From: Candidatus Saccharimonadota bacterium
GTDB taxonomy: Archaea > Nanohalarchaeota > Nanosalinia > Nanosalinales > Nanosalinaceae
Length of the DNA: 32,000 nucleotides
Assembly: GCF_029232205.1 (NCBI RefSeq)
Contig: NZ_CP107255.1
Coordinates: 210,001 to 242,000 of the forward strand
Reading direction: 5' to 3'
Of this stretch, positions 4,631-23,541 are shown piece after piece. The notes under the pieces are model-generated. The model saw only the letters and a list, made by a program, of their open reading frames with translations, had not been told where the DNA came from and did not search any database. The translations under genes were made by a program, and so were the position numbers. The first letter of the stretch is position 1. Each line of letters opens with the position of its first letter.

Positions 4631-5758
4631 ATGACAGAGCACAAATGCGAGAAATGCGGTAAGACATTCGACTCAGAAAAAGCACTCGAACAACACCAAG
4701 AAGATTATGACCACAGCAAAGAGAAAGAAGACGATAAAGGTCTGAAGGAAAGGATAATGACCTCGAACTACACAGGCTTAGCAATAATAGGCATACTCCT
4801 CGTAGGTCTTACAGTAGGAGGATACTACGCCCTGAGTCCTTCAAACACATCTGCTGGTGATGGATACAGTCATTCACATACTGCTGAGATAGGCAGCCAA
4901 GCACCTGATTCTTCGTTCACTACAGTCAACGGCGAAGAATTCAAGCTCTCCAAATACAGCGGAGAGAAAAGAATGATATGGCTTTACGCAACCTGGTGTC
5001 CAAGCTGTTACAAAGGAGCACAAGTCCTCCAAGCCCGAAACGAACAACTCAAGGATATGAAGATAATCGCCTTGAAAACGAAAGGAAACGCAGGATACTC
5101 AGGACCATCAACACAGCAGTTCGCCGATAAATACGCACCAGAAACCCTGAACAAAGAGAACTGGGTCTGGGGAAAGGCTTCACAGGAACTAACCAACATC
5201 TATAACCCTCAGAACACTCCTGATATAATCTGGCTGGTAAAACCTAACGGAGAGATTTACGCCAAGACAGCAGCACCAGCAGCACGAATCAACCAGATAA
5301 CAAGGTTCGCCCAGAAAAACTTCAACAACACAGAAGAAATCAGCCTCGGAAAAGAAGTAGAAATAATGGGCAGAAACCACATTTCAACAGGCGAACAGGT
5401 CAACAACTACAACTCCAATCCTCCAACATCAGGACCTCACTACCAGAGACCAGCAGAAACAGGGTTCTACAGCAAGAAACTGCCTGACGAAAGACTTGTC
5501 CACAACATCGAACACGGACAAATCTGGATAAGCTACAACAACATCACTTCAGAAACCAGGAAACAGTTAGAACAACTGGCACAGAACTATCCTAAAGCCG
5601 TTATAGTGACAAAGCGTCCAGAGAACAACGCCAAGATAGCGGTAGCCTCCTGGGGAAGACTGATGGAGCTTAACAGCTACGACAAGCAAAAAGTCGTGAA
5701 ATACATCAAGGCCTACATCAACAAATCTCCAGAACCATTTGCCAAACTACCCAACTAA
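4631..5758 (+). CDS. Membrane-anchored protein: N-terminal C2H2 zinc finger, one TM, thioredoxin-like (CxxC) domain plus DUF3105-like domain
   Basis: Finger CEKCGKTFDSEKALEQHQEDYDH, TM helix (GLAIIGILLVGLTVGGYYAL), TlpA/ResA-like WLYATWCPSCYKG. The DUF3105-like segment is YNSNPPTSGPHY...LVHNIEHGQIWISY. Confidence 0.85.
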   Translation: MTEHKCEKCGKTFDSEKALEQHQEDYDHSKEKEDDKGLKERIMTSNYTGLAIIGILLVGLTVGGYYALSPSNTSAGDGYSHSHTAEIGSQAPDSSFTTVNGEEFKLSKYSGEKRMIWLYATWCPSCYKGAQVLQARNEQLKDMKIIALKTKGNAGYSGPSTQQFADKYAPETLNKENWVWGKASQELTNIYNPQNTPDIIWLVKPNGEIYAKTAAPAARINQITRFAQKNFNNTEEISLGKEVEIMGRNHISTGEQVNNYNSNPPTSGPHYQRPAETGFYSKKLPDERLVHNIEHGQIWISYNNITSETRKQLEQLAQNYPKAVIVTKRPENNAKIAVASWGRLMELNSYDKQKVVKYIKAYINKSPEPFAKLPN

Positions 5759-14304: not shown

Positions 14305-14305
14305 G

Positions 14306-14485
14306 GTGATCCACATAGTAGAGAAAACCCAATACCAGGAAGTTGAATGCTTCGAATGCGAAAAATGTGGATTTCACTACGAGGGAAAAGAACTGGCTGA
14401 AAAATGTGAGAAGTTCTGCCGAGAAAAAGGAGTATGCAGCTTTGAGGTAACCACCAAGTCACTTGAAAGAGAAGCAGTAACATAG
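14306..14485 (+). CDS. 59-aa Cys-rich putative metal-binding protein coupled to copB (absent from ORF track)
   Basis: The GTG lies 1 nt after the copB stop. Hand translation: MIHIVEKTQYQEVECFECEKCGFHYEGKELAEKCEKFCREKGVCSFEVTTKSLEREAVT*, with 6 Cys in C-x2-C-x2-C-x12-C-x3-C-x5-C. The track lists only the antisense 14301..14483 ORF, which looks like low-complexity shadow sequence. Confidence 0.6.
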   Translation: MIHIVEKTQYQEVECFECEKCGFHYEGKELAEKCEKFCREKGVCSFEVTTKSLEREAVT

Positions 14486-14527
14486 GATATCGGAAGGCAA
14501 CAACAGAATAATAGATAACTAAACATA

Positions 14528-14551
14528 TTGCAGTGTTTGGGTTTTCAACCC
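14528..14551 (-). repeat. Degenerate copy of the 3' end of tRNA-Gly (candidate distal att remnant)
   Basis: ttgcagtgtttgggttttcaaccc versus 23468-23491 ttgcggtgtccgggatttgaaccc gives 19/24 identities. The match covers the acceptor 3' strand, the T-loop and 2 nt downstream of the tRNA. Confidence 0.5.
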
Positions 14552-14675
14552 TCCTCTATATGCCAACGGGCGTACACGAAGCAAACCAACCCCTAAATAA
14601 CCAGTTCATATCCACAAAAACCAGTGTTTGTAACCAATATCTGCAAATCTCCTATGCGTAGGTGTTTGACCCCTA

Positions 14676-15053
14676 TCAGTTATCCAGGTATTTGTCAGGT
14701 ATATCCATTTTCTCATCTTTGAACAATATACCTGTCATCTCTCCCTTCTTCCGATCCCAGACAGTAATATCAAAACCCATCTTACCAGTCAACTCAGGGT
14801 CAAGCGGAAAGTAGTCAGGATTCCTCTTAATACCTTTATCCAGAGTATTCTCCACTAACTGTCGATACTGGTTTTCACTCCAGTCACGGACATCTCTCTC
14901 AGTACCCACCTGCTTAATAGTCAACCTAACCCTGCTCTGAGCTAAGTTCGGATACTCCTCAGCCTTATCCTCAGGAAAAGGATGCAAGAGCCGAATGAAA
15001 ATCTTGAACCGTGGAAGTTCCTCAGACATAAACAACTCCGCACTATATCGCAT
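14676..15053 (-). CDS. Hypothetical protein (element border gene)
   Basis: 125-aa ORF with no recognisable motifs. Divergent from 15185..15475 across a palindrome-rich region. The start may be the internal ATG (MSEELPRF). Confidence 0.55.
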   Translation of the reverse strand: MRYSAELFMSEELPRFKIFIRLLHPFPEDKAEEYPNLAQSRVRLTIKQVGTERDVRDWSENQYRQLVENTLDKGIKRNPDYFPLDPELTGKMGFDITVWDRKKGEMTGILFKDEKMDIPDKYLDN

Positions 15054-15101
15054 TAAGAAGCTAACCCGTAAGCAATAGACGGGTAGAAAACAAATCTGGA
15101 T

Positions 15102-15149
15102 GGTTTCAATATTGAAACCTGTTTTCTGAACCGTTTCAAATTTGAAAAC
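15102..15149. promoter_or_regulatory. Operator-like palindromes (GTTTC/GAAAC half-sites) in the divergent control region
   Basis: Perfect 18-bp palindrome ggtttcaatattgaaacc (15102-15119). Imperfect palindrome gtttcaaatttgaaaac (15133-15149). It abuts the TATA box tttataa (15151-15157), about 31 nt upstream of the ATG at 15185. Confidence 0.55.
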
Positions 15150-15184
15150 CTTTATAACCCGATATACCGCCCTTTTCAGCTACC

Positions 15185-15475
15185 ATGAGCGGCTACAACT
15201 TCAACAACTACGAAGAAAACAAAGACTTACCAGAGACCCCTACACTGTTGCGAAAATTGGTCAAAGATAAACTGGAAGGCGAAGACTTTGTTTCCAACCG
15301 AAAAATTCGGCAACACATAGGCAAGCAAGAACAAGTCGAACACCTCTCCGAAGACACCGTCAGAACACTGCTCTCAGAAATCCTCAACTGGATGAAACAA
15401 CAAAACCAGGTAGAAGTAAAGGAAAAAGACTCAGGCAGCCACCTCAAAGAAAAACACTGGAAACTAATATCTTAG
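15185..15475 (+). CDS. Hypothetical small protein (candidate element regulator)
   Basis: 96 aa. It is the only plus-strand gene of the element and lies directly downstream of the TATA and palindromes. The antisense ORF 15208..15447 is rejected. Confidence 0.6.
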   Translation: MSGYNFNNYEENKDLPETPTLLRKLVKDKLEGEDFVSNRKIRQHIGKQEQVEHLSEDTVRTLLSEILNWMKQQNQVEVKEKDSGSHLKEKHWKLIS

Positions 15476-15756
15476 TCCTGATTTTCTATATAGTCGAGCT
15501 TTTTCTTGTGAAGTCTATTGGCTCTCTTGAGCCTCGTTACGCTGGTTAATGCCTTGGTCAGCTTGTCTCCGAAGGAATTGTCTCTGTTTCTTTCCTTGCC
15601 GTTTAGCAGGTCGAGTATGAAGTTGAGTTTTCGTTCTTCTCCCCAGTCTCCGATCTCTTCCGCTACATCTTTCAATGGTATATCCTCCTCTATCAGTTGT
15701 TCAGGTGAAAAGGAGTTCTGGTCTCTCCATTCATCCAGTATGTCCCGGTTGTTCAT
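15472..15756 (-). CDS. Hypothetical acidic/basic small protein
   Basis: The ATG at 15756 forms an ATGA overlap with the upstream gene's stop. The track start at 15771 is the alternative. No motifs recognised. Confidence 0.55.
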   Translation of the reverse strand: MNNRDILDEWRDQNSFSPEQLIEEDIPLKDVAEEIGDWGEERKLNFILDLLNGKERNRDNSFGDKLTKALTSVTRLKRANRLHKKKLDYIENQD

Positions 15757-16049
15757 TCGGTCAGCCTCCAATAGGTTGTATCTGATACTTCTTCGCTATC
15801 TGGTTCGTATTTGATTGCTATTCCCAGCTTCTGCAGGTGTTTCAGGGCTTTCTGAACTGTTCTTTTATCGGCGTCTATCGCTTTTTGGAGTTCGTATTCG
15901 GTTTTCGGTCTTTTCTTCAGTTCTTCCTGTATCATGTCTCGTATTAGGTTCTGGCTTCTTCGACCATCTGTCTCGTGCTTGGAGAGTTCTTCTCTCACCA
16001 TTTCCCTGATGAATTCGTGGATTTCGTCAAGTTCTTCCAGCTTAACCAT
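15753..16049 (-). CDS. Small winged-helix DNA-binding protein
   Basis: KTEYELQKAIDADKRTVQKALKHLQKLGIAIKY is an HTH/wing pattern. GGAGGTG lies 13 nt upstream of the ATG. Confidence 0.6.
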   Translation of the reverse strand: MVKLEELDEIHEFIREMVREELSKHETDGRRSQNLIRDMIQEELKKRPKTEYELQKAIDADKRTVQKALKHLQKLGIAIKYEPDSEEVSDTTYWRLTE

Positions 16050-16152
16050 ACTTCAGCATACACCTCCGGGTTTTGTCCGAAGTAACGGATACCTCTTTAT
16101 AAAGCAGTCATAGGTTAAGCACCATATCTGCCGGTCAAAAACTGGATATGAG

Positions 16153-16617
16153 TCATTCGCCATGGGATACCGTCACCTCTTTCAGTTGTTTGTAGGCTTT
16201 CCAGTATCGGCAGTTTTCTCCATGATTATTGATTGCCTGTATCTTGTTTCCACAGCTTTCACAGATACCGTTCTCTACTTTAGGGAAGGAAGTGCATTCA
16301 ACTGGATTTCCTTTTGAGTCTACAGGAACGAAGTATCCGCCACCTGTTATTCTACGGGGTAGCTCAACAAAATACTGTCCACATTCGAGGCAGCGATAAT
16401 CCCAGTCTCTATCCTCATTAGGATCGGCTACTTCTCCTTCCCAGTTTAGCATCCAGTTTCGTAGTTTTTCGTGACGGCTATCTATCTCCCAGATTGCTGG
16501 CGGATTTTCTTTCTCAAGAGGCTGACCGCATCTATGACATTTGTGACCGTAGTTCGTTGCACATTCAGAACAGACAGAATACTTGCCACAGCAATCCCAG
16601 TTAGCTCGCTTATTCAA
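16153..16617 (-). CDS. Multi-zinc-ribbon protein
   Basis: 154 aa with CC, CSEC, CHRC, CLEC and CESC pairs, about 3 predicted Zn ribbons. TTG start in a TTGA overlap with the upstream gene. Confidence 0.6.
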   Translation of the reverse strand: MNKRANWDCCGKYSVCSECATNYGHKCHRCGQPLEKENPPAIWEIDSRHEKLRNWMLNWEGEVADPNEDRDWDYRCLECGQYFVELPRRITGGGYFVPVDSKGNPVECTSFPKVENGICESCGNKIQAINNHGENCRYWKAYKQLKEVTVSHGE

Positions 16618-16859
16618 GGCTCCTCACCTCTTTTCTGCCATTCAACGAAACCGTCTTCTAGGCATCCGTCTGTCCAAACTATCTTTCCGTTTTCCATTCT
16701 TCTACAGTTGCAGGCATCTGGATGACCTGGTATCGGTTGGTAGATTTTCGAGTCTATACCTCTGTAGCGCATTTTTCCTCCTGCCTCGAAATGCCGGGTA
16801 TCGCATCTAGGACAGGTAAGAGTTTCTTCGAGTTCATATCCGCAGTGTTGACAGTTCAT
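16614..16859 (-). CDS. Zinc-ribbon protein
   Basis: 81 aa. CQHC...CPRC forms an N-terminal ribbon, with additional CNC and C. Confidence 0.6.
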   Translation of the reverse strand: MNCQHCGYELEETLTCPRCDTRHFEAGGKMRYRGIDSKIYQPIPGHPDACNCRRMENGKIVWTDGCLEDGFVEWQKRGEEP

Positions 16860-16872
16860 AGAGTTTGTTCAC

Positions 16873-17088
16873 CTATGTAGTATTATTTTCAAGCTGGAGC
16901 TTCGCAACATGGTATGCGTAGTCTTCTCCAACTACCGGCTCTAACTTGATTTTATTCGAGCTATCCAGAGAATAAACAACTTCCGTCCGTGACTCATCTC
17001 CGAGTTCCTTATCCAGATCGGGTAAAGGCATCTCCTGGCTCTCCTGCTGGTTAAGTATGCCGATGGCTTTTGCCTCGATCCTATCCAT
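16873..17088 (-). CDS. Hypothetical small acidic protein
   Basis: 71 aa, 8-nt overlap with the replicase stop, same operon. Confidence 0.5.
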   Translation of the reverse strand: MDRIEAKAIGILNQQESQEMPLPDLDKELGDESRTEVVYSLDSSNKIKLEPVVGEDYAYHVAKLQLENNTT

Positions 17089-20000
17089 TCTTTTTCACCC
17101 TGTACTGCTCACGGCCTGCTTCCTTGCGGGTTTCGAAAACGCTGTTTTCGTGGATAGCGTCGAGAACTTCTACCTTGTCATATTCTTCACTAACGAGATA
17201 CTGTGCGTTCTGGACTGGATTCCAGCCATCGCCTTGGGATGCTTTGTGGATAGTCTTGGCTGGTTCATCCAGTTCTTGCTTCACGGAGTTCACGGATTCA
17301 CTTTGATTCTGCGAAGGGGAGTCCTGGTGTTTATCCGAGCCCTGTTCCTTTTCCTGCCCACCCCCTTCCGTTTCCTTCGTGTAACGGTGAAGTTCATGAA
17401 CCTCTTCATCGTCCTCTTCGGTTTCCTCAATCTCCCTTTTCTTGGCTATCAAGTTGTCTATCTCTGTTTTATTGAGGAACTGGATTCCCTTGGGTTCAAG
17501 TCTTACTCCGCTACCTGACTTTGTAGCTACAAGTTTCTCGGCTTTCAGTTTCTGCCATTTCTCTTTCACGGTTCGTTTGCTGTCGCCGAGTTTCTCTGCC
17601 AGTGCTCCGGAAGTATTCGCCTCTCGACCTATCTCCTTCAAGATAAGCAGTTGATCTGCGGAGAGTTCTTCAACCAGTTCCTCCAGTTTATCCTGGTCAA
17701 GCGTAGTCTTCTCTCGTTCCTCTTCCAATAGGCTCTTCATTCCAAGCCGTTCCATTACCTTCTCGAAAAACTTCTTGACTCGTTCAACATGCTCTTCCGC
17801 AACCGTTACTTTCTCGTCCTCAACTGCGTGTTCAAGGACTGCTTGTGCTACGCAGAGCCGTGTAAGCTTTTCTCTAAATGCTCGGCTGACTACTGGTATG
17901 CTCTGGAAGTTGTAGCCTTTCATCATATTACTGGCTTCGACTCTGATTCTCTCCTTCGCATCATCAGTGTACTGAATATCTTGTGGTTTCAGACTCCATG
18001 CCCAGAGAACATGCTTCTTGTAGAAATCATCACTGTACGGCTTCTCCGAAGCTCTTGCCTGAGCTATCTCGTCCTCTGTAACGTCTTCAGCTAGGAACGG
18101 GATATACAAGTCCCACCGCCTGATGTCAGGCCCCGAACTGAAAGTATTCGTATCCTTAATTGCCTTGGCAGGTTTCGGGTAATGTAGGGAGATGGGTTCT
18201 TTCGGCGGATTCATAGCCCCGATAATCCTGACTCTGGCAGGTGCCGAACCTTTGACGCTGCGGTTTACATTTACTCTCTGATCTTCGAGTATCTCTCGCA
18301 GGTTCTTCATTTCTTCTTCGTGTAGCTGATTTAGCCCATCTAATCCAACCAGTCCCATGTCGTTGAGTGGGAGAACGCCCCATTCGATGACTCTCTGTTC
18401 TGTGTTGATTGTGTAGACCAGTCCTGTTCTGCTGCCTGTTTCTGCAGAGGCGTATTCTCCGAGCCGGTAGTGGTCTTTGGTCAGCTCCTTTATCTGTTCG
18501 GACTTGTATGTTCCTCCGTCTCCGAAGAAAAGTAATCGGAGACTGCCTCGCTGTATCTTTCCCTCGATATTCGGTATGAGAGGAGGGCTGTGTGCGGTAA
18601 GCTGTAATGCTTTTCTGGCGAGCGGTCTACCGACCATGTCCGCAGCTATCATTTCACAGGCGTTCTCAACCGCCCAGTTTTCGTTGTATGCTTCGTGTTC
18701 TTCTTCGTCAAGTTCTATTTCCTGGAAGCTTTGTTCCTCTGGTTCTATCTCATCTCCTATCAGCACCAGCTGGTCATTATTGCTGTTGACGTGGACTTCT
18801 CCTCTGACTTTGACCGATTTAGAGTTCGGTATTTCTTCGCCTATGATGTAGGCTGGTATGCTGTTGTTCTGGTTGGCGTTGAACTGTTCTGTGTCCTGTA
18901 GAAGGTTCTGGAGCTTCATCCAGGATTTATCGAGGTATTCTTCTATGGTGTGATTCCAGCTGTGGTTGTTCTTGTCATCTATACAGTCTGTCCTGCTGTT
19001 CTTCCATGCGACTATGCTTTTCAGGATATTGTGCTGGTTCTTGTTGGAGAGAAGGAAGCGATGTAGCAGTTTCTCCTCCATCATATCTCCTTCCCAAGTT
19101 TTTCCGCACTTCGGACACTCAGCTGTTACTTTCCATGGAATTCCCATTCCCTGCTTCTGTCCCTTAATCTTACCTCTGACAGAAATCCGAATATCCACAA
19201 GGTCTGAATCAACATCAGCAGGGCTGTAAGATCTATGGACATCGAGAAAATGTCTTGCGTCTTCTATCAGTTCTTCGAGATCGTAGCCGTTTTCCGTCGT
19301 CCAGTCGTCTAAATCCGCTTTTTCTGGCCTTTCTTCACTCCATTCGTGGACTATGACTTTGTGCTCCTCTACTAGGCTGTCGCCTGTTTGCCGTGCATTC
19401 TCCCTACCCGTATCGTCGTTATCAGTTACTATCAGAATCTGTCTGTAGTTCTTGGCGATAGCTTTGAGTTCGTTGAGGTGTCCTTCAAAGCTTCCGCAGG
19501 CTGCAGCAACAGTATCGTATCCTGCTTCGTAAGCGGAGATGGCGTCCGGATAGCCTTCCGTCAGTATCAGCGTATCGGAGTTGTCTCGGAGCAGCTTGTA
19601 GATGTCGTTTTCTACAAACTCGTTCCCACTGCTTTTGGCCTGCTGGTATTTCTTGTGTTCTTCCTCTGCGTTGGGATCTCGACACGTTACGAGGTATGGC
19701 TGGTCGTTTCTCTCCAGATGCGGAATCAGGTATGTGCCGTCTCCCTGCCCCGTCATCCCGAAGTGGATTCCTGTTTCTCCAAGTTTCTCGCCGTACTCCT
19801 GTTTCAAGCTGTTGAAAAGTTCTTCATCCATCCAGCCGATCCTCAGGTCTTCAACGGTCTCCTTACTCCAGTTTCTTCTCTCGTCCAAGTTTTGGTAGTG
19901 TTGCCGTTCCAGTTGTTCCTGTGCTTTCTGAACTACTTCTTCCTGTATCTGTCGGATTTCTCTCCTCTTTTCCCGTTGCTCCGAGCTTTTAGCTTTCTCA

Positions 20001-20260
20001 TCAGGTATTTCTATGTCAAGTCCGTGCTCCTGAATCAGTTGTTTGGCTGCTTCATAGTTGCTGACTCCGCCTCTCTGGGCTATGTAGTTGATTAAGTCTC
20101 CACCTTTAGCCTTGCAACTGTGGCATTTCCAGTTTCCTGACTCGTAGATTTTGAGTGCCGGGTCGCTGTCTCCACAGATTTCACAGTTCAGCTTGTTTCC
20201 CTCTACATCAGCAACATCCGAGAAATCCAGCTTTCTCTTGACTTTGTAGATGAGGCTCAC
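17081..20260 (-). CDS. Replicase: DnaG-type primase (CHC2 Zn finger plus Toprim) fused to a complete MCM helicase (OB/Zn N-domain, AAA+, wHTH) with an acidic tail
   Basis: aa 26-60 CEICG..WKCHSCKAKGGDLINYI (zf-CHC2-like). aa 228-286 LILTEGYPDAIS...ILIVTDNDDTGRE (Toprim Glu and DxD). aa 355-500 OB-like region with CPKCGK. MCM motifs: Walker A FFGDGGTYKS, Walker B LVGLDGLNQL, EILEDQRVNVNRS, sensor-1 IIGAMNP, Arg-finger RRWDL. C-terminal wHTH (SGALAEKLGDSKRTVKEKWQKL). Confidence 0.85.
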   Translation of the reverse strand: MSLIYKVKRKLDFSDVADVEGNKLNCEICGDSDPALKIYESGNWKCHSCKAKGGDLINYIAQRGGVSNYEAAKQLIQEHGLDIEIPDEKAKSSEQREKRREIRQIQEEVVQKAQEQLERQHYQNLDERRNWSKETVEDLRIGWMDEELFNSLKQEYGEKLGETGIHFGMTGQGDGTYLIPHLERNDQPYLVTCRDPNAEEEHKKYQQAKSSGNEFVENDIYKLLRDNSDTLILTEGYPDAISAYEAGYDTVAAACGSFEGHLNELKAIAKNYRQILIVTDNDDTGRENARQTGDSLVEEHKVIVHEWSEERPEKADLDDWTTENGYDLEELIEDARHFLDVHRSYSPADVDSDLVDIRISVRGKIKGQKQGMGIPWKVTAECPKCGKTWEGDMMEEKLLHRFLLSNKNQHNILKSIVAWKNSRTDCIDDKNNHSWNHTIEEYLDKSWMKLQNLLQDTEQFNANQNNSIPAYIIGEEIPNSKSVKVRGEVHVNSNNDQLVLIGDEIEPEEQSFQEIELDEEEHEAYNENWAVENACEMIAADMVGRPLARKALQLTAHSPPLIPNIEGKIQRGSLRLLFFGDGGTYKSEQIKELTKDHYRLGEYASAETGSRTGLVYTINTEQRVIEWGVLPLNDMGLVGLDGLNQLHEEEMKNLREILEDQRVNVNRSVKGSAPARVRIIGAMNPPKEPISLHYPKPAKAIKDTNTFSSGPDIRRWDLYIPFLAEDVTEDEIAQARASEKPYSDDFYKKHVLWAWSLKPQDIQYTDDAKERIRVEASNMMKGYNFQSIPVVSRAFREKLTRLCVAQAVLEHAVEDEKVTVAEEHVERVKKFFEKVMERLGMKSLLEEEREKTTLDQDKLEELVEELSADQLLILKEIGREANTSGALAEKLGDSKRTVKEKWQKLKAEKLVATKSGSGVRLEPKGIQFLNKTEIDNLIAKKREIEETEEDDEEVHELHRYTKETEGGGQEKEQGSDKHQDSPSQNQSESVNSVKQELDEPAKTIHKASQGDGWNPVQNAQYLVSEEYDKVEVLDAIHENSVFETRKEAGREQYRVKKNG

Positions 20261-20559
20261 TACTGTTTCACCTGTCGCTTCCTGTTCTTCTCTGGGATTT
20301 TGTCCTCCAGCCGTTCTACTGCGTCTTTTGCGTGTTCTACCAGTTCTTTCGTATCTTTCTGGTTGCTGAGTCTTCCAGAAGTCCGCTTGATGACCTGACC
20401 CCAGTAAAGTGCTGTGGCAGTCATATGAGGCGGTTTATCGGTGTAGAGGCGGTAGACGAACTCCCACTTGAACCGTTCCGTTGTAATTTCGACCACAAAT
20501 CTCTGCCCATATTTTCTGGATTTCTGCATCCTGCTGGTGGTGTCGATAATCTCTGCCAT
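20260..20559 (-). CDS. Hypothetical 99-aa protein (revised start)
   Basis: MAEIIDTTSRMQKSRKYGQRF... starts at an ATG overlapping the upstream stop (TGATG). The track's 148-aa version (to 20706) adds an Arg-rich N-extension that is the out-of-frame reading of the zinc-ribbon gene. Confidence 0.55.
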   Translation of the reverse strand: MAEIIDTTSRMQKSRKYGQRFVVEITTERFKWEFVYRLYTDKPPHMTATALYWGQVIKRTSGRLSNQKDTKELVEHAKDAVERLEDKIPEKNRKRQVKQ

Positions 20560-20726
20560 CAAAAGCTCACCTCTCTCCAGACGCTTTTTTGTCCGAGGAA
20601 CGGTTCTTCGTGGATGTGTTTCCAGAACTGACCGCAGTCCTGACACTTCCAGATGCTTTCGGTCTCGAAGCGGTTGACATCTTCGAACTTCAGTTCTCCA
20701 CCGCATTCACAGTTCTTCTGTGGCAT
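20559..20726 (-). CDS. 55-aa zinc-ribbon protein (absent from ORF track)
   Basis: Hand translation: MPQKNCECGGELKFEDVNRFETESIWKCQDCGQFWKHIHEEPFLGQKSVWREVSF*, with C-x-C...C-x2-C. The ATG overlaps the upstream stop (TAATG) and the stop overlaps the next ATG. Confidence 0.55.
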   Translation of the reverse strand: MPQKNCECGGELKFEDVNRFETESIWKCQDCGQFWKHIHEEPFLGQKSVWREVSF

Positions 20727-20983
20727 TACTGATCACCCTCCATGCTCTCTACGAATGCGTCTACCTGCTTCTTCGCCTTTTCTACTGTTTCTATGTGTAG
20801 GAAGTAGATAGAACGGTGATACTCGATTTCATCAGAGATTTTCAAGATTTGGAAGAGAGCGAAGTCGTTTTCCGGAAGATATATGTCGAACTCATAGAAT
20901 ACATCCTCCAGATAGACGGTTTTGTGAACCTTCTTCCATGTGTCATTATCGTAGACTCTGCAGTTACTGTCCACCACTGACAC
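20726..20983 (-). CDS. Hypothetical small protein
   Basis: 85-aa ORF. GTG start with an adjacent GGAGGTG, so the real start may be one of the GTGs 6-9 nt downstream. No motifs. Confidence 0.5.
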   Translation of the reverse strand: MSVVDSNCRVYDNDTWKKVHKTVYLEDVFYEFDIYLPENDFALFQILKISDEIEYHRSIYFLHIETVEKAKKQVDAFVESMEGDQ

Positions 20984-21033
20984 CTCCGAGAAGAGCCGAA
21001 CTTTTTTGAAGCGATATATTGAGAAACTCCATG

Positions 21034-21564
21034 TTAGAGTTCACCTCTCTCCTTGGCGGGTTGGACGGTGCTCTCGGCGGACGTATTTTCGTCCGCCTTC
21101 TCTTCCACTTCCAGTTGATACACTTGGTCTGGTTCTCTGCTAACGAAGTGTTCGGGATGATCGGCGTTCTCCAAGTCTCTAACGCTGTAATGTTCGATTG
21201 TCTTCTCGTCGAGCTTGACGATGTAGAAATGGCTTATATCCAGATGTAGGTGCTCAGAGCCACAGATACGGACTCCGCAAGTTACAGGTCTAACTGATCG
21301 TACCTCCTTCTGCTCCACTGGATCGGTTTCTAACTCCTTCTCCTTTCTACGCTTGACAAAGTAAGTCCAGGTTGCAGTGAAGTGTTCTAAATCATGTCTC
21401 GGCATCCACTGGAAATATTCCCGAAGTAGAGAGACTACATTCCAGGGGTAGCCGTTCCAGTGCTTATAGGTCAGAACTTCTTCTATTCTTCGCTCTGTCT
21501 CTTCAGTCTCCTGGTTCTTCCAATTTCTTTCCTGCTGGAAGAGAATCTGGCATCTAGTTGCCAT
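21034..21564 (-). CDS. Hypothetical protein
   Basis: 176 aa, ATG start overlapping the upstream gene end by 11 nt. No recognisable motifs. Confidence 0.6.
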   Translation of the reverse strand: MATRCQILFQQERNWKNQETEETERRIEEVLTYKHWNGYPWNVVSLLREYFQWMPRHDLEHFTATWTYFVKRRKEKELETDPVEQKEVRSVRPVTCGVRICGSEHLHLDISHFYIVKLDEKTIEHYSVRDLENADHPEHFVSREPDQVYQLEVEEKADENTSAESTVQPAKERGEL

Positions 21565-21976
21565 TCTTTACCACCTTTTCCTGCAGTTCCTCCCAGTCGT
21601 TGAAGCTATAATTCCTGTCTCGGAGAAAGACGGTGACTGGTTCTTTGAGCTCCTTTCCAAGTTCTCTTACCTGCCGATTCTTGTCGTTGCAGAAAGTTTC
21701 AATCAGCTTCAGGAAAGCCTTGAGTTCATCTTCGATTTCAGGCCGTAGTTCCTCGGCGTCGCTGGCTTTCTGCCATCCGCTTTCAAAACATCGCATGATG
21801 TAAAGTTTAGCTTCCTTCTTGCTGCATCCGTCCTTCCGGACTCTTTCAGCGTACTTTTCCACTGTTCCCCGTAACCAGTTTCTCTGACCTTCTGCCGAGT
21901 TAAGCGGATTGCAGAACTCCTCTCGACCTTCTCCGTTTCCGCTTTCCTCAGTATTGAAGAAGTTATAGTTACTCAC
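21554..21976 (-). CDS. Hypothetical protein
   Basis: 140 aa, GTG start. The N-terminus MSNYNFFNTEES resembles that of ORF 15185 (MSGYNFNNYEEN). Confidence 0.55.
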   Translation of the reverse strand: MSNYNFFNTEESGNGEGREEFCNPLNSAEGQRNWLRGTVEKYAERVRKDGCSKKEAKLYIMRCFESGWQKASDAEELRPEIEDELKAFLKLIETFCNDKNRQVRELGKELKEPVTVFLRDRNYSFNDWEELQEKVVKNGN

Positions 21977-22106
21977 CGATCATCGACCTCGTTTTCTGAA
22001 CTTCTTCCCTCAGAATCGGGTTCTGGAGGTTTTCTACAGCCTCCTCTGAGGCTTTCAATATGACCTCCAAAGCGTCGGCAAGCTTTTCTTCTTCTCTATG
22101 CTTCAC
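21969..22106 (-). CDS. Possible 45-aa helical peptide bridging two operon genes
   Basis: Hand translation from the GTG: (M)KHREEEKLADALEVILKASEEAVENLQNPILREEVQKTRSMIGE*. It overlaps both neighbours. It has only positional support. Confidence 0.25.
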   Translation of the reverse strand: MKHREEEKLADALEVILKASEEAVENLQNPILREEVQKTRSMIGE

Positions 22107-22308
22107 TGCCTGCCACCTCTGATTGAAGAAGATGAATTTTGGAGCTTCCCTTTTGCAGTATTTTTATCTGGTTTTCAGTAGCCATGGACGCTGTTTCGCC
22201 CTGTATAGTAGGGCGGCTGTATCCTGTTGCCTCCACAAGCTCTCTCTGTGTAAGTCCGTAGTCTGCCTCTTGAAGTGCCTGGCAGATTTCACGTCGGATT
22301 CTATTCAT
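22096..22308 (-). CDS. Small wHTH DNA-binding protein (first gene of the leftward operon)
   Basis: LTQRELVEATGYSRPTI is an HTH. GGAGGT lies 7 nt upstream of the ATG. A TATA-like attataag (minus strand) lies about 40 nt upstream. Confidence 0.65.
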   Translation of the reverse strand: MNRIRREICQALQEADYGLTQRELVEATGYSRPTIQGETASMATENQIKILQKGSSKIHLLQSEVAGSEA

Positions 22309-22420
22309 TTTTTGACCTCCTGTGGAGGTCTGGAGTCCCGAAGAGCTTATAATGGGCTGAGCTAAACAGAAAATACAGATGTTGTAAAGGCTCTACGACG
22401 GTTTTAGCCCGTTTTTGTTT

Positions 22421-23398
22421 CTAAGAAAAATCGTGTTCAGAAAATGTATTCCTTAAATCTTCCACCGAGACAGAGAATGCGGATAATTCAGCATCAGTTA
22501 GTTCTCCGTCCTCCTCTAGTTTGAAATGCAACAAATCTCCTTCATCTGAGAGAAAATTAGGGTTGGTCTTCCTACGCCATAAATCGATCTTCTCTAATGT
22601 CTTGACAATTTCTTCAGGGTAACTTTCGACGTAGCTTTCTGTGCCGATTGGATCGCCGAATAGTTCTTTCTCTTTTTTAAGCGTTCTTAAGGCGTCTGCA
22701 TCCATTTCTACAGCCCTAAATAGTTCATCCAGTAGCGTGAAGCACACCTGTTTACCTTCGTCGGTTTCAACTTCCGTAATCAAGCTTTCAGGCGTGAATA
22801 GGTTCTGTAAGTAAGAGTCCAAGTATTTCTTCTCGTTCTCTCCCAGCTTGTAGCATACTTTCTCGAACAGTTCGATTGCAAGACTGGAGATTGCTTTGCG
22901 GTTTATTCTCCAGTACTTCTTGTTGCCGACTGTCTCAATCTCTACAAAGTGAGGTTGTTGCTCAATATCTGTGCTTTTTAGACAGTTCAAGTAGCTTGAA
23001 ACTTTGGCAGGGCTTCGGCCTATTTTTTCTGCGATGTAGTGGTGGCTGGCATATGCTTTTAGATCAAGAACGTAGTCTTGCTTTTCATAGTCATATTCAG
23101 CTGCCTTCACAAGTATTCTGTGGCTTTTTACCGCACTTTCCTTTTTGAACTCCACGCTAAAGTCATCTTCCTTGAGGTATCTTTCCAGCAAGTCTGGTTC
23201 TTCTATTATTTTTTGTATATAATCTGAGTGGCTACCAATTGATAAGCAAGCAAAGGTAGCGTTTACAGATTCTATACTGCCCGTAGAGGTATCAGGGAGA
23301 TTAAGTAGCTCCAGCTTTTCCTCAGTCACCGGTATGTATAACTTCACATGATTACGTAGTTCGACAAGTTGTAAAAATCTGTCACCTATAGATAACAA
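22421..23398 (-). CDS. Hypothetical 325-aa protein with a central HTH-like segment, adjacent to the tRNA/att side
   Basis: HHYIAEKIGRSPAKVSSYLNCLK is HTH-like, and the C-terminus is acidic. No tyrosine- or serine-recombinase signature is visible. Confidence 0.6.
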   Translation of the reverse strand: MLSIGDRFLQLVELRNHVKLYIPVTEEKLELLNLPDTSTGSIESVNATFACLSIGSHSDYIQKIIEEPDLLERYLKEDDFSVEFKKESAVKSHRILVKAAEYDYEKQDYVLDLKAYASHHYIAEKIGRSPAKVSSYLNCLKSTDIEQQPHFVEIETVGNKKYWRINRKAISSLAIELFEKVCYKLGENEKKYLDSYLQNLFTPESLITEVETDEGKQVCFTLLDELFRAVEMDADALRTLKKEKELFGDPIGTESYVESYPEEIVKTLEKIDLWRRKTNPNFLSDEGDLLHFKLEEDGELTDAELSAFSVSVEDLRNTFSEHDFS

Positions 23399-23468
23399 TT
23401 AAAACAGTTCCGAAGAATACGCAAGTAAAAACCTATCTCCCTATCCCGCATCGTATCAATAGTAAGGT

Positions 23469-23541
23469 TGCGGTGTCCGGGATTTGAACCCGGGTCACCG
23501 GCTTGGAAGGCCGGGGTCTTAGGCCACTGGACCAACACCGC
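23469..23541 (-). tRNA. tRNA-Gly (anticodon UCC), no encoded CCA
   Basis: Minus strand GCGGTGTTGGTCCAGTGGCCTAAGACCCCGGCCTTCCAAGCCGGTGACCCGGGTTCAAATCCCGGACACCGC(A). 7-bp acceptor stem, anticodon arm CCGGC/CTTCCAA/GCCGG, T-arm CCGGG/TTCAAAT/CCCGG. Confidence 0.9.

Follow-up and report, generated by a model that had tools for sequence, protein, structure and literature searches.

The locus considered here raises the question of what a single protein that carries both a DnaG-type primase and an MCM-like helicase does on the chromosome of a nanohaloarchaeon. The gene lies within the window, i.e., the whole stretch of 32,000 nucleotides analyzed here (NZ_CP107255.1, positions 210,001 to 242,000), where it occupies 17081–20260 on the minus strand and forms one unbroken open reading frame (ORF) of 1059 amino acid residues (aa) with a GTG start. 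Its product is probably a self-contained replication protein, serving as initiator, helicase and primase for a mobile element of about 9 kb that is integrated beside a tRNA-Gly gene. A first-pass annotation, made from the sequence alone, had described the locus as a single 1059-aa polypeptide in which a DnaG-type primase is followed by an MCM-fold helicase; this overall architecture is correct, and the fusion is real and uncommon among primase-helicase replication proteins. All the sequence motifs quoted in that annotation (CEICG...CHSC, LTEGYPDA, IVTDNDDTGRE, CPKC, GDGGTYKS, LVGLDGLNQL, EDQRVNVNRS, IIGAMNP and RRWDL) are present. In addition, the N-terminus proves to be DnaG-like, the acidic residues of the Toprim domain align with those of DnaG, and the gene does not consist of two genes separated by a frameshift, which were the three points on which the annotation had made its reading depend.

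Full-length homologues of the protein fall into 11 clusters (1048–1080 aa, 44–95% identity), to which P0019 and P0173 were added later; they are colinear over their whole length, and the linker that joins primase to helicase (aa 320–350) is conserved in the 12 colinear homologues compared. The 1059-codon frame is found in three independent assemblies, with no indels and no stop codons between the copies. Pairwise ratios of nonsynonymous to synonymous substitution (dN/dS) are 0.09–0.10 for the primase, 0.03–0.08 for the MCM N-domain and likewise for the AAA+ domain, and 0.05–0.09 for the winged helix; all four are under strong purifying selection. The acidic tail (aa 946–1059; 17081–17425, minus strand), which the first-pass annotation had rightly recognized, is poorly conserved (dN/dS 0.28–0.38). 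Because the homologues are colinear and the indel-free frame is under selection, a frameshifted gene or a pseudogene is excluded; the idea that an assembly artefact has fused two separate genes is already refuted by the three assemblies and the conserved linker, and its remaining chance is negligible. The GTG start codon (20258–20260) is ATG in the near-identical copies L006 and L008, and shares one nucleotide with the stop codon of an upstream ORF (20260–20706, minus strand; 148 aa in the window and 99–130 aa in relatives) that is kept in both copies. This overlap suggests translational coupling of the two genes.

The N-terminal head (aa 1–345) is predicted to be a complete catalytic unit of a DnaG-type primase of the bacterial and phage kind. 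It begins with a zinc-binding domain (aa 22–86; 20003–20197, minus strand) containing C26, C29, C46 and C49, which are invariant or nearly so within the family; position 29 is His in several relatives, giving there the literal CHC2 pattern. The DnaG RNA-polymerase N-subdomain (aa ~120–222; 19595–19903, minus strand) contains the motifs RIGW, IPHL...CR and KYQQ..S, and in the last of these K204, Y205, Q207 and S210 are aligned with KYINS of Aquifex DnaG (2au3). In the Toprim domain (aa 229–325; 19286–19576, minus strand), the acidic residues E235, D239, D280, D282, D316 and D318 are in register with DnaG structures and do not vary among the 12 MCM-fused members or the 10 primase heads compared. 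The first-pass annotation had proposed the primase from its zinc ribbon and Toprim domain; the N-subdomain and the aligned catalytic acids strengthen that proposal.

A profile built from ten heads, drawn from proteins with differing C-terminal modules, aligns over positions 5–345 with residues 8–356 of Aquifex aeolicus DnaG (2au3; E 4.5e-13), which comprise the zinc-binding domain and the RNA-polymerase core. In this alignment the nanohaloarchaeal family motifs KYkqsKst, EGypDA, DnDdtG and GyDLDdw are in register with KYINSPDS, EGYFDL, DGDDAG and GYDPDEF of Aquifex DnaG, respectively. Further matches of the profile are to the catalytic cores of T7 gp4 (1nui) and of four more bacterial DnaG primases. 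The window protein itself matches NCBIfam dnaG TIGR01391 (1e-23), PHROG phrog_47 (DNA primase; aa 17–336, 2.4e-29), four Pfam Toprim families at aa 229–325 (best Toprim_2, 2.6e-9) and, among PDB sequences, Aquifex DnaG. Its match to Zn_ribbon_DnaG of Pfam (7.6e-4, 19.7 bits) lies under the gathering cutoff of 24.9, and the relative P0018 matches DNAG_N. The DnaG alignment stops near aa 345, immediately before the MCM N-domain, and the C-terminal DnaB-binding domain of DnaG is absent. The cellular DnaG homologue of archaea is different and is not known to have a zinc ribbon.

The module that follows (aa 340–945) is predicted by structural modeling to have the MCM fold, consisting of a Zn/OB N-domain, an AAA+ domain and a winged helix. 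The N-terminal domain (aa 346–520; 18701–19225, minus strand), which comprises MCM subdomains B and C, combines an OB fold with a Zn site formed by C382, C385, C426 and probably H432, of which the three Cys residues are nearly invariant. The AAA+ ATPase domain (aa 540–830; 17771–18643, minus strand) includes Walker A (G580–S587, GDGGTYKS), sensor-1 N684, arginine finger R715 and the helix-2 insert (h2i)/presensor 1 (PS1) region. Walker A, N684 and the R715-W-D717 arginine-finger motif are conserved over 149–158 clade members, and the EDQ/EQQ motif is conserved as well. By sequence, the Pfam MCM P-loop family PF00493 matches aa 526–687 (6e-16; 58.7 bits vs. a cutoff of 23.3), PHROG phrog_18685 matches aa 566–840 (1.1e-31), and the PDB matches are MCM2-7 and archaeal MCMs.

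A first full-length AlphaFold2 model, based on 12 sequences, was set aside because its AAA+ region was unreliable (predicted local distance difference test score, pLDDT, <50), and was replaced by a second model of aa 340–945 from a 91-sequence alignment (pLDDT 94.4; predicted template-modeling score, pTM, 0.90). In Foldseek searches, the second model matches archaeal MCM 8x7t/8x7u with template-modeling (TM) scores of 0.65–0.66 over 627–645 columns, and also SsoPfMCM 9nuk and human, yeast and worm MCM3/5/6 (E ~1e-28). A sequence profile of this helicase chassis aligns with archaeal MCM residues 100–600 (E 2.5e-39). Since both model and profile align with archaeal MCM, the protein has the Zn/OB subdomains and an AAA+ domain with its helical lid, and the model contributes the C-terminal winged helix. 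Thus the OB-like region with a CPKC Zn motif and the winged helix-turn-helix (wHTH) of the first-pass annotation are both supported. As a separate observation, a viral protein of 560 aa (BFVD entry I1TI69) comes close to cellular MCMs in its match to the helicase model (E 1.2e-26, TM 0.63–0.67), whereas other viral structures match it far more weakly.

The description of this module as a full MCM with clear signatures holds for the fold, Walker A, sensor 1 and the arginine finger, but not for subdomain A, the Walker B Glu or the score against cellular MCMs. The profile alignment begins at about residue 100 of archaeal MCM 8x7t_D, so that helical subdomain A is absent; the primase is located where canonical MCM has this subdomain. 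Cellular archaeal MCM shares with the window protein the Zn/OB N-domain, the AAA+ and winged-helix folds, Walker A, sensor 1, the arginine finger and an EQQ-like motif, but the window protein is element-borne, has no subdomain A and carries Gly and Glu607 where canonical MCM has the Walker B Glu and Lys, respectively. The cellular MCM model NF040949 (NCBIfam) gives it 39.9 bits vs. a cutoff of 940, and this score, the island location and the patchy distribution described below argue against orthology with the cellular replicative MCM. The window protein is therefore neither a cellular MCM orthologue nor, by active-site criteria, a canonical MCM.

The most unusual feature of the ATPase site is the Walker B dipeptide, which is D-E in canonical MCM and D641-G642 here (18335–18340, minus strand). 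The canonical IDEFDKM is aligned with LDGLNQL, and G642 is invariant in the fusion family. This register follows from the distance to sensor 1 (43 vs. 44 residues) and agrees with the profile alignment. LVGLDGLNQL, cited in the first-pass annotation as an MCM signature, is thus present as a motif but without the catalytic Glu. Among 158 proteins recovered by the AAA+ profile of the family, the dipeptide is DG in 107, EG in 12, DE in 9, DS in 9 and EA in 7, and the Glu position is occupied by Gly, Ser or Ala in about 149. The nine D-E proteins include BcMCM (BC1863 of Bacillus cereus prophage phBC6A51), an actinophage protein and five metagenomic Toprim-bearing relatives. Members of the MCM-like clade with [D/E]-[G/S/A] (P0020–P0163) come mainly from metagenomic contigs and include some DPANN and Asgard metagenome-assembled genomes (MAGs). 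Literature searches found no published description of an MCM-like clade lacking the Walker B Glu.

In the proteins without this Glu, the other ATPase residues are retained: the arginine finger R715 is found in 149 of 149 and sensor-1 N684 in 148 of 149. In addition, position 607 is Glu in 135 of the 149 (Asp in a further six) and R611 is present in 137, whereas position 607 is variable in the nine D-E proteins (Glu in four) and is Lys in canonical MCM. This fixation of E607 and R611 in Glu-less proteins suggests compensation. In AAA+ folds, strand β2 neighbors the Walker B strand, and a 'glutamate switch' is known. As E607 lies two residues past β2 in the model of aa 340–945, a relocated catalytic acid at this position is plausible in view of the covariation and of AAA+ topology in general. 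In BcMCM, the Walker B substitution D711A leaves reduced ATPase and helicase activity, with DNA still being unwound (PMC3273815), indicating that this lineage tolerates Walker B changes.

The genomic setting is cellular. The window includes genes for Nop56/58 and fibrillarin, SufS, an ABC ATPase, an MMPL transporter, two P-type metal ATPases and redox proteins, and is therefore a chromosome bearing an island, not a free plasmid or virus, a point missed by the first-pass annotation. The island extends approximately from 14305 to 23468, i.e., between the stop codon of a P-type ATPase gene (14304) and tRNA-Gly(TCC) (23469–23541, minus strand), and its ORFs other than the primase-MCM gene are small, acidic and mostly unannotatable. 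Contig L006, whose primase-MCM protein is 95% identical, runs exactly from within tRNA-Gly, which its end matches, up to window position 14309, and some of the genes in between are replaced by others; the contig has no terminal overlap that would indicate a circular or excised form. In L008, a Nanohaloarchaea MAG, a homologous island adjoins the same tRNA-Gly beside the same housekeeping genes, and DNA identity with the window is 87% in the island vs. 69–77% in the flanking housekeeping genes. The internal gene content of the island varies among the copies. More distant family members lie near tyrosine integrases, and in L001 the integrase gene directly follows tRNA-Thr; such integrases are present in the related loci L001, L003, L012 and L014.

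Other features of the island and its relatives were noted in passing. A 325-aa ORF (22421–23398, minus strand) adjoins tRNA-Gly, the position held by the integrase in L001; none of the related loci has a homologue of it, and L006 has a 276-aa ORF on the opposite strand instead. The island also has several short ORFs rich in Cys, with multiple CxxC pairs, which probably encode zinc ribbons (16153–16617, 16614–16859 and 20559–20726 on the minus strand; 14307–14485 on the plus strand) and are mostly conserved in L006 and L008. A 98-aa wHTH-like protein (15753–16049, minus strand), with weak matches to Csa3/WYL-type HTH families, is the only island gene besides primase-MCM that is clearly common to the distant element L001, where its homologue (45% identity) is encoded directly downstream of the primase-MCM gene. 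An Aenigmatarchaeota MAG (L014:2907–13186) carries two tandem copies of an element with the order integrase, small ORFs and MCM-like gene, the second MCM-like gene being shorter (504 vs. 708 aa). Outside the island, two window ORFs (459–1046 and 4631–5758, both plus strand) encode N-terminal C2H2-type zinc fingers joined to redox domains, cupredoxin/plastocyanin in one and AhpC/redoxin plus DUF3105 in the other; they belong to a metal-resistance/redox cluster that also includes the two P-type ATPases, DUF305, a DsbA-like thioredoxin and a pyridine-nucleotide disulphide oxidoreductase.

The helicase chassis is far more widespread than the fusion. An exhaustive search with the full-length family profile gave 12,518 matches at E ≤ 1e-3 and 590 at E ≤ 1e-30, counted as representatives of 50%-identity clusters. 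Nearly all of the 150 best matches listed, of the 590, carry the MCM-like chassis, and the full architecture occurs in only three representatives. The C-terminal ~600 residues define a large family of mostly stand-alone proteins of 600–800 aa. Those members that are named belong to MAGs of Aenigmatarchaeota, Micrarchaeota and Odinarchaeota and adjoin tyrosine integrases. Among 36 members with long N-terminal extensions, 35 match Pfam MCM, and their heads match either archaeo-eukaryotic primase (AEP)-type families (Prim-Pol in 6, AEP-TOTE in 3, PriCT_1 in 4 and DNA_primase_S in 1) or DnaG-type families (Toprim_2 in 6 and Zn_ribbon_DnaG in 6). Outside the nanohaloarchaeal fusion family, the nearest relative is P0020, a Prim-Pol::MCM-like protein. 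In GTDB, the close family occurs in 3 of 185,579 species representatives, all of them Nanohaloarchaea MAGs, and is confined to Nanohaloarchaeota. A search of a plasmid collection gave one Bacillus AEP-MCM match and nothing else.

In a rough neighbor-joining tree of the AAA+ cores, drawn without support values, the nanohaloarchaeal Toprim fusions form one clade within the group lacking the Walker B Glu. The D-E Toprim fusions group with BcMCM, apart from this clade, suggesting at least two independent DnaG-MCM fusions. Conversely, primase heads of the nanohaloarchaeal type are found on three other types of C-terminal module (41–52% identity over ~345 aa in P0012–P0017), namely a D5_N/DUF5906 superfamily 3 (SF3) helicase in P0012, P0013 and P0015, a module in P0014 and P0016 with no Pfam match and no classical P-loop by regular-expression search, and a module in P0017, P0018 and P0073 with a P-loop but no Pfam match. 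Locus L007:4376–7396 is listed with the proteins that carry this head on other modules. Primase heads and C-terminal modules have probably been shuffled, as the tree supports.

If the gene encodes the replication protein of an element, its modules can be assigned to successive steps. The C-terminal winged helix, possibly together with the Zn/OB N-domain, would recognize element DNA, and the MCM-like AAA+ module would assemble into a ring and unwind DNA in the 3'–5' direction. Hexamer formation and this polarity are expected only by analogy with the relative BcMCM. The DnaG-type primase, positioned on the ring at the subdomain A site, would then synthesize primers, which host polymerases would extend. 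As for its history, an element-borne MCM-like chassis, normally stand-alone or AEP-fused, would have gained a DnaG-type head in the nanohaloarchaeal lineage, and the same head would also have been joined to SF3 and two other C-terminal modules.

Several results weigh against this assignment. No integrase was recognized among the island ORFs in Pfam, PHROG and PADLOC scans, in which the 325-aa ORF by the tRNA had no match of any kind. A direct-repeat scan, a search for a second tRNA-Gly 3' half (up to three mismatches) and a comparison of island-end k-mers revealed no attachment (att) repeats longer than 9 nucleotides, and local repeat scans and a 150-nucleotide composition profile of the island revealed no iterons or marked AT-rich stretch as candidates for an origin. 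Current mobility and an origin are therefore putative for the window copy, and the island may be a stranded element or the user of an unrecognized recombinase. A scan of IMG/VR with family-specific peptide patterns, which are blind to distant relatives, gave no match, and the tree of the AAA+ cores has no bootstrap support. Finally, the absence of the Walker B catalytic Glu leaves ATP hydrolysis and processive unwinding uncertain. This last point suggests a protein of another kind, in which the MCM-like module would bind ATP but be impaired in hydrolysis, and would act as an origin-melting or loading scaffold or as a switch that positions the primase and recruits host MCM, instead of as a processive helicase. 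The Glu-to-Gly replacement in all family members, its counterparts throughout most of the clade, and the retained Walker A, sensor 1 and arginine finger, which fit nucleotide binding and sensing, are consistent with such a role. However, the near-complete conservation of R715 and N684, the PS1/h2i region and the low AAA+ dN/dS are expected of an active motor, the fixation of E607 and R611 exactly in Glu-less proteins suggests compensation, and BcMCM D711A remains able to unwind DNA. A hydrolysis-impaired module thus seems rather unlikely.

The lack of an integrase or att site in the window copy, and a gene that is intact and strongly selected, would also be compatible with a domesticated cellular replication gene of Nanohaloarchaeota that no longer belongs to a mobile element. 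Such domestication is extremely unlikely, given that so few species representatives carry the gene, that its score against the cellular MCM model falls well short of the cutoff, that the island is more conserved than its flanks and that neighboring gene content differs between copies. A role in conflict, defence or DNA repair, with Toprim acting as a nuclease driven by the AAA+ domain (cf. OLD, Gabija and DRT-associated DnaG-like proteins), is very unlikely. It is prompted by a PADLOC match to 'RT-associated DnaG-like' (1e-16) and by a reverse transcriptase/bAvd pair some kilobases away in one related locus, but the match covers generic DnaG homology only, and the protein has the full DnaG layout, with a zinc ribbon and the KYxxS subdomain that is specific to primases. 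Moreover, no neighboring gene matches any defence model, and the relatives hold the replication-gene position in integrase-bearing elements. The pair in question (L003:11563–13298) consists of bAvd/23S_rRNA_IVP and a reverse transcriptase (RVT_1), resembles a diversity-generating retroelement and lies ~4 kb downstream of the primase-MCM gene.

The window protein, interpreted as an element replication protein, is best filed with the known single-polypeptide primase-helicase replication proteins of mobile elements, similar to P4 gpα and BcMCM, with a DnaG head and an MCM-type motor. BcMCM is the best characterized relative of its ATPase module (27–31% identity; 27% and E 7e-29 in the alignment), and is likewise an element-encoded primase::MCM-like fusion in a single polypeptide. 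It is a 3'–5' helicase with single-stranded-DNA-stimulated ATPase activity and forms hexamers (PMC2715239, PMC3273815), but it differs in its AEP (PrimPol) head, its Walker B D711-E712 and its bacterial host. P4 gpα consists of an N-terminal DnaG-type primase, a 3'–5' AAA+ (SF3) ring helicase and a C-terminal winged-helix origin binder (PMC4889955). It is thus a classic precedent for a DnaG-type primase with a 3'–5' motor, a pairing that the first-pass annotation had regarded as unusual; the helicase of the window protein, however, is of the MCM/superfamily 6 (SF6) type. D5_N/DUF5906 has no Pfam match in the window protein, whereas its siblings P0012 and P0015 do match, and P0012, P0013 and P0015 have the P4-like layout of this head with an SF3 helicase. 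T7 gp4 and bacterial DnaG-DnaB share the zinc ribbon and Toprim RNA-polymerase core of the window primase, but their helicase partner is of the RecA-fold superfamily 4, with 5'–3' polarity, and the window protein has no DnaB-binding domain.

The Toprim::MCM-like layout itself is also found in 36 Microbacterium and 2 Arthrobacter phage genomes, where it is annotated as 'DNA primase/helicase'. As in the window protein, Toprim is followed by an MCM-like N-domain, AAA+ and a C-terminal wHTH in these phage proteins. One of them, OverHedge gp47 (961 aa), has a Toprim domain and a sub-threshold MCM match, and is colinear with aa 223–933 of the window protein (24% identity, E 6e-23). The phage proteins differ in being carried by bacteriophages, in having the canonical Walker B D-E and in grouping with BcMCM in the AAA+ tree, and their N-terminal 200 aa do not align with the window protein. 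From these comparisons, the phage and nanohaloarchaeal fusions probably arose independently. SF6/DUF3987 helicases have been described in fusion with, or next to, AEP or DnaG primases, with no preference of SF6 helicases for a primase type, and DnaG primases have been found to be exclusive to bacteriophages among double-stranded DNA viruses (Kazlauskas et al., 2016, PMC4889955). The proposal that a Toprim-primase::MCM fusion is an uncharacterized replicase type was therefore overstated. Literature searches on DnaG-MCM, on Toprim and MCM fusions and on DnaG-like primases of archaeal mobile elements found no description of the nanohaloarchaeal family, and the text of a 2025 preprint on nanohaloarchaeal viruses mentions MCM but neither DnaG nor Toprim. 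What sets the family apart is its restriction to Nanohaloarchaeota, the evidence for head swapping and the clade-wide loss of the Walker B Glu.

Primase-helicase fusions are minimal replication engines of mobile elements, and the pairing of primase and helicase has been treated as partly domain-specific. A DnaG-type primase that is strongly selected and fused to an MCM-type motor in DPANN elements points to modular assembly of replication proteins across the bacterial/archaeal divide. The genes concerned are now annotated as 'toprim domain-containing protein', 'hypothetical' or 'MCM2', and are potential markers of elements integrated into DPANN genomes. Loss of the Walker B Glu throughout the clade, with retention of the other ATPase motifs, poses a testable question on ATP hydrolysis in AAA+/MCM proteins. 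A broader and more speculative possibility, which we put forward tentatively, is that a large undescribed clade of archaeal element-borne MCM-like proteins has dispensed with this Glu, maybe using relocated E607 together with R611 as a distinct catalytic solution within the MCM family, and that in Nanohaloarchaeota this motor was joined to a bacterial-type DnaG primase that hands primers to the archaeal replisome. If so, the protein would combine the two cellular replication systems in a natural hybrid.

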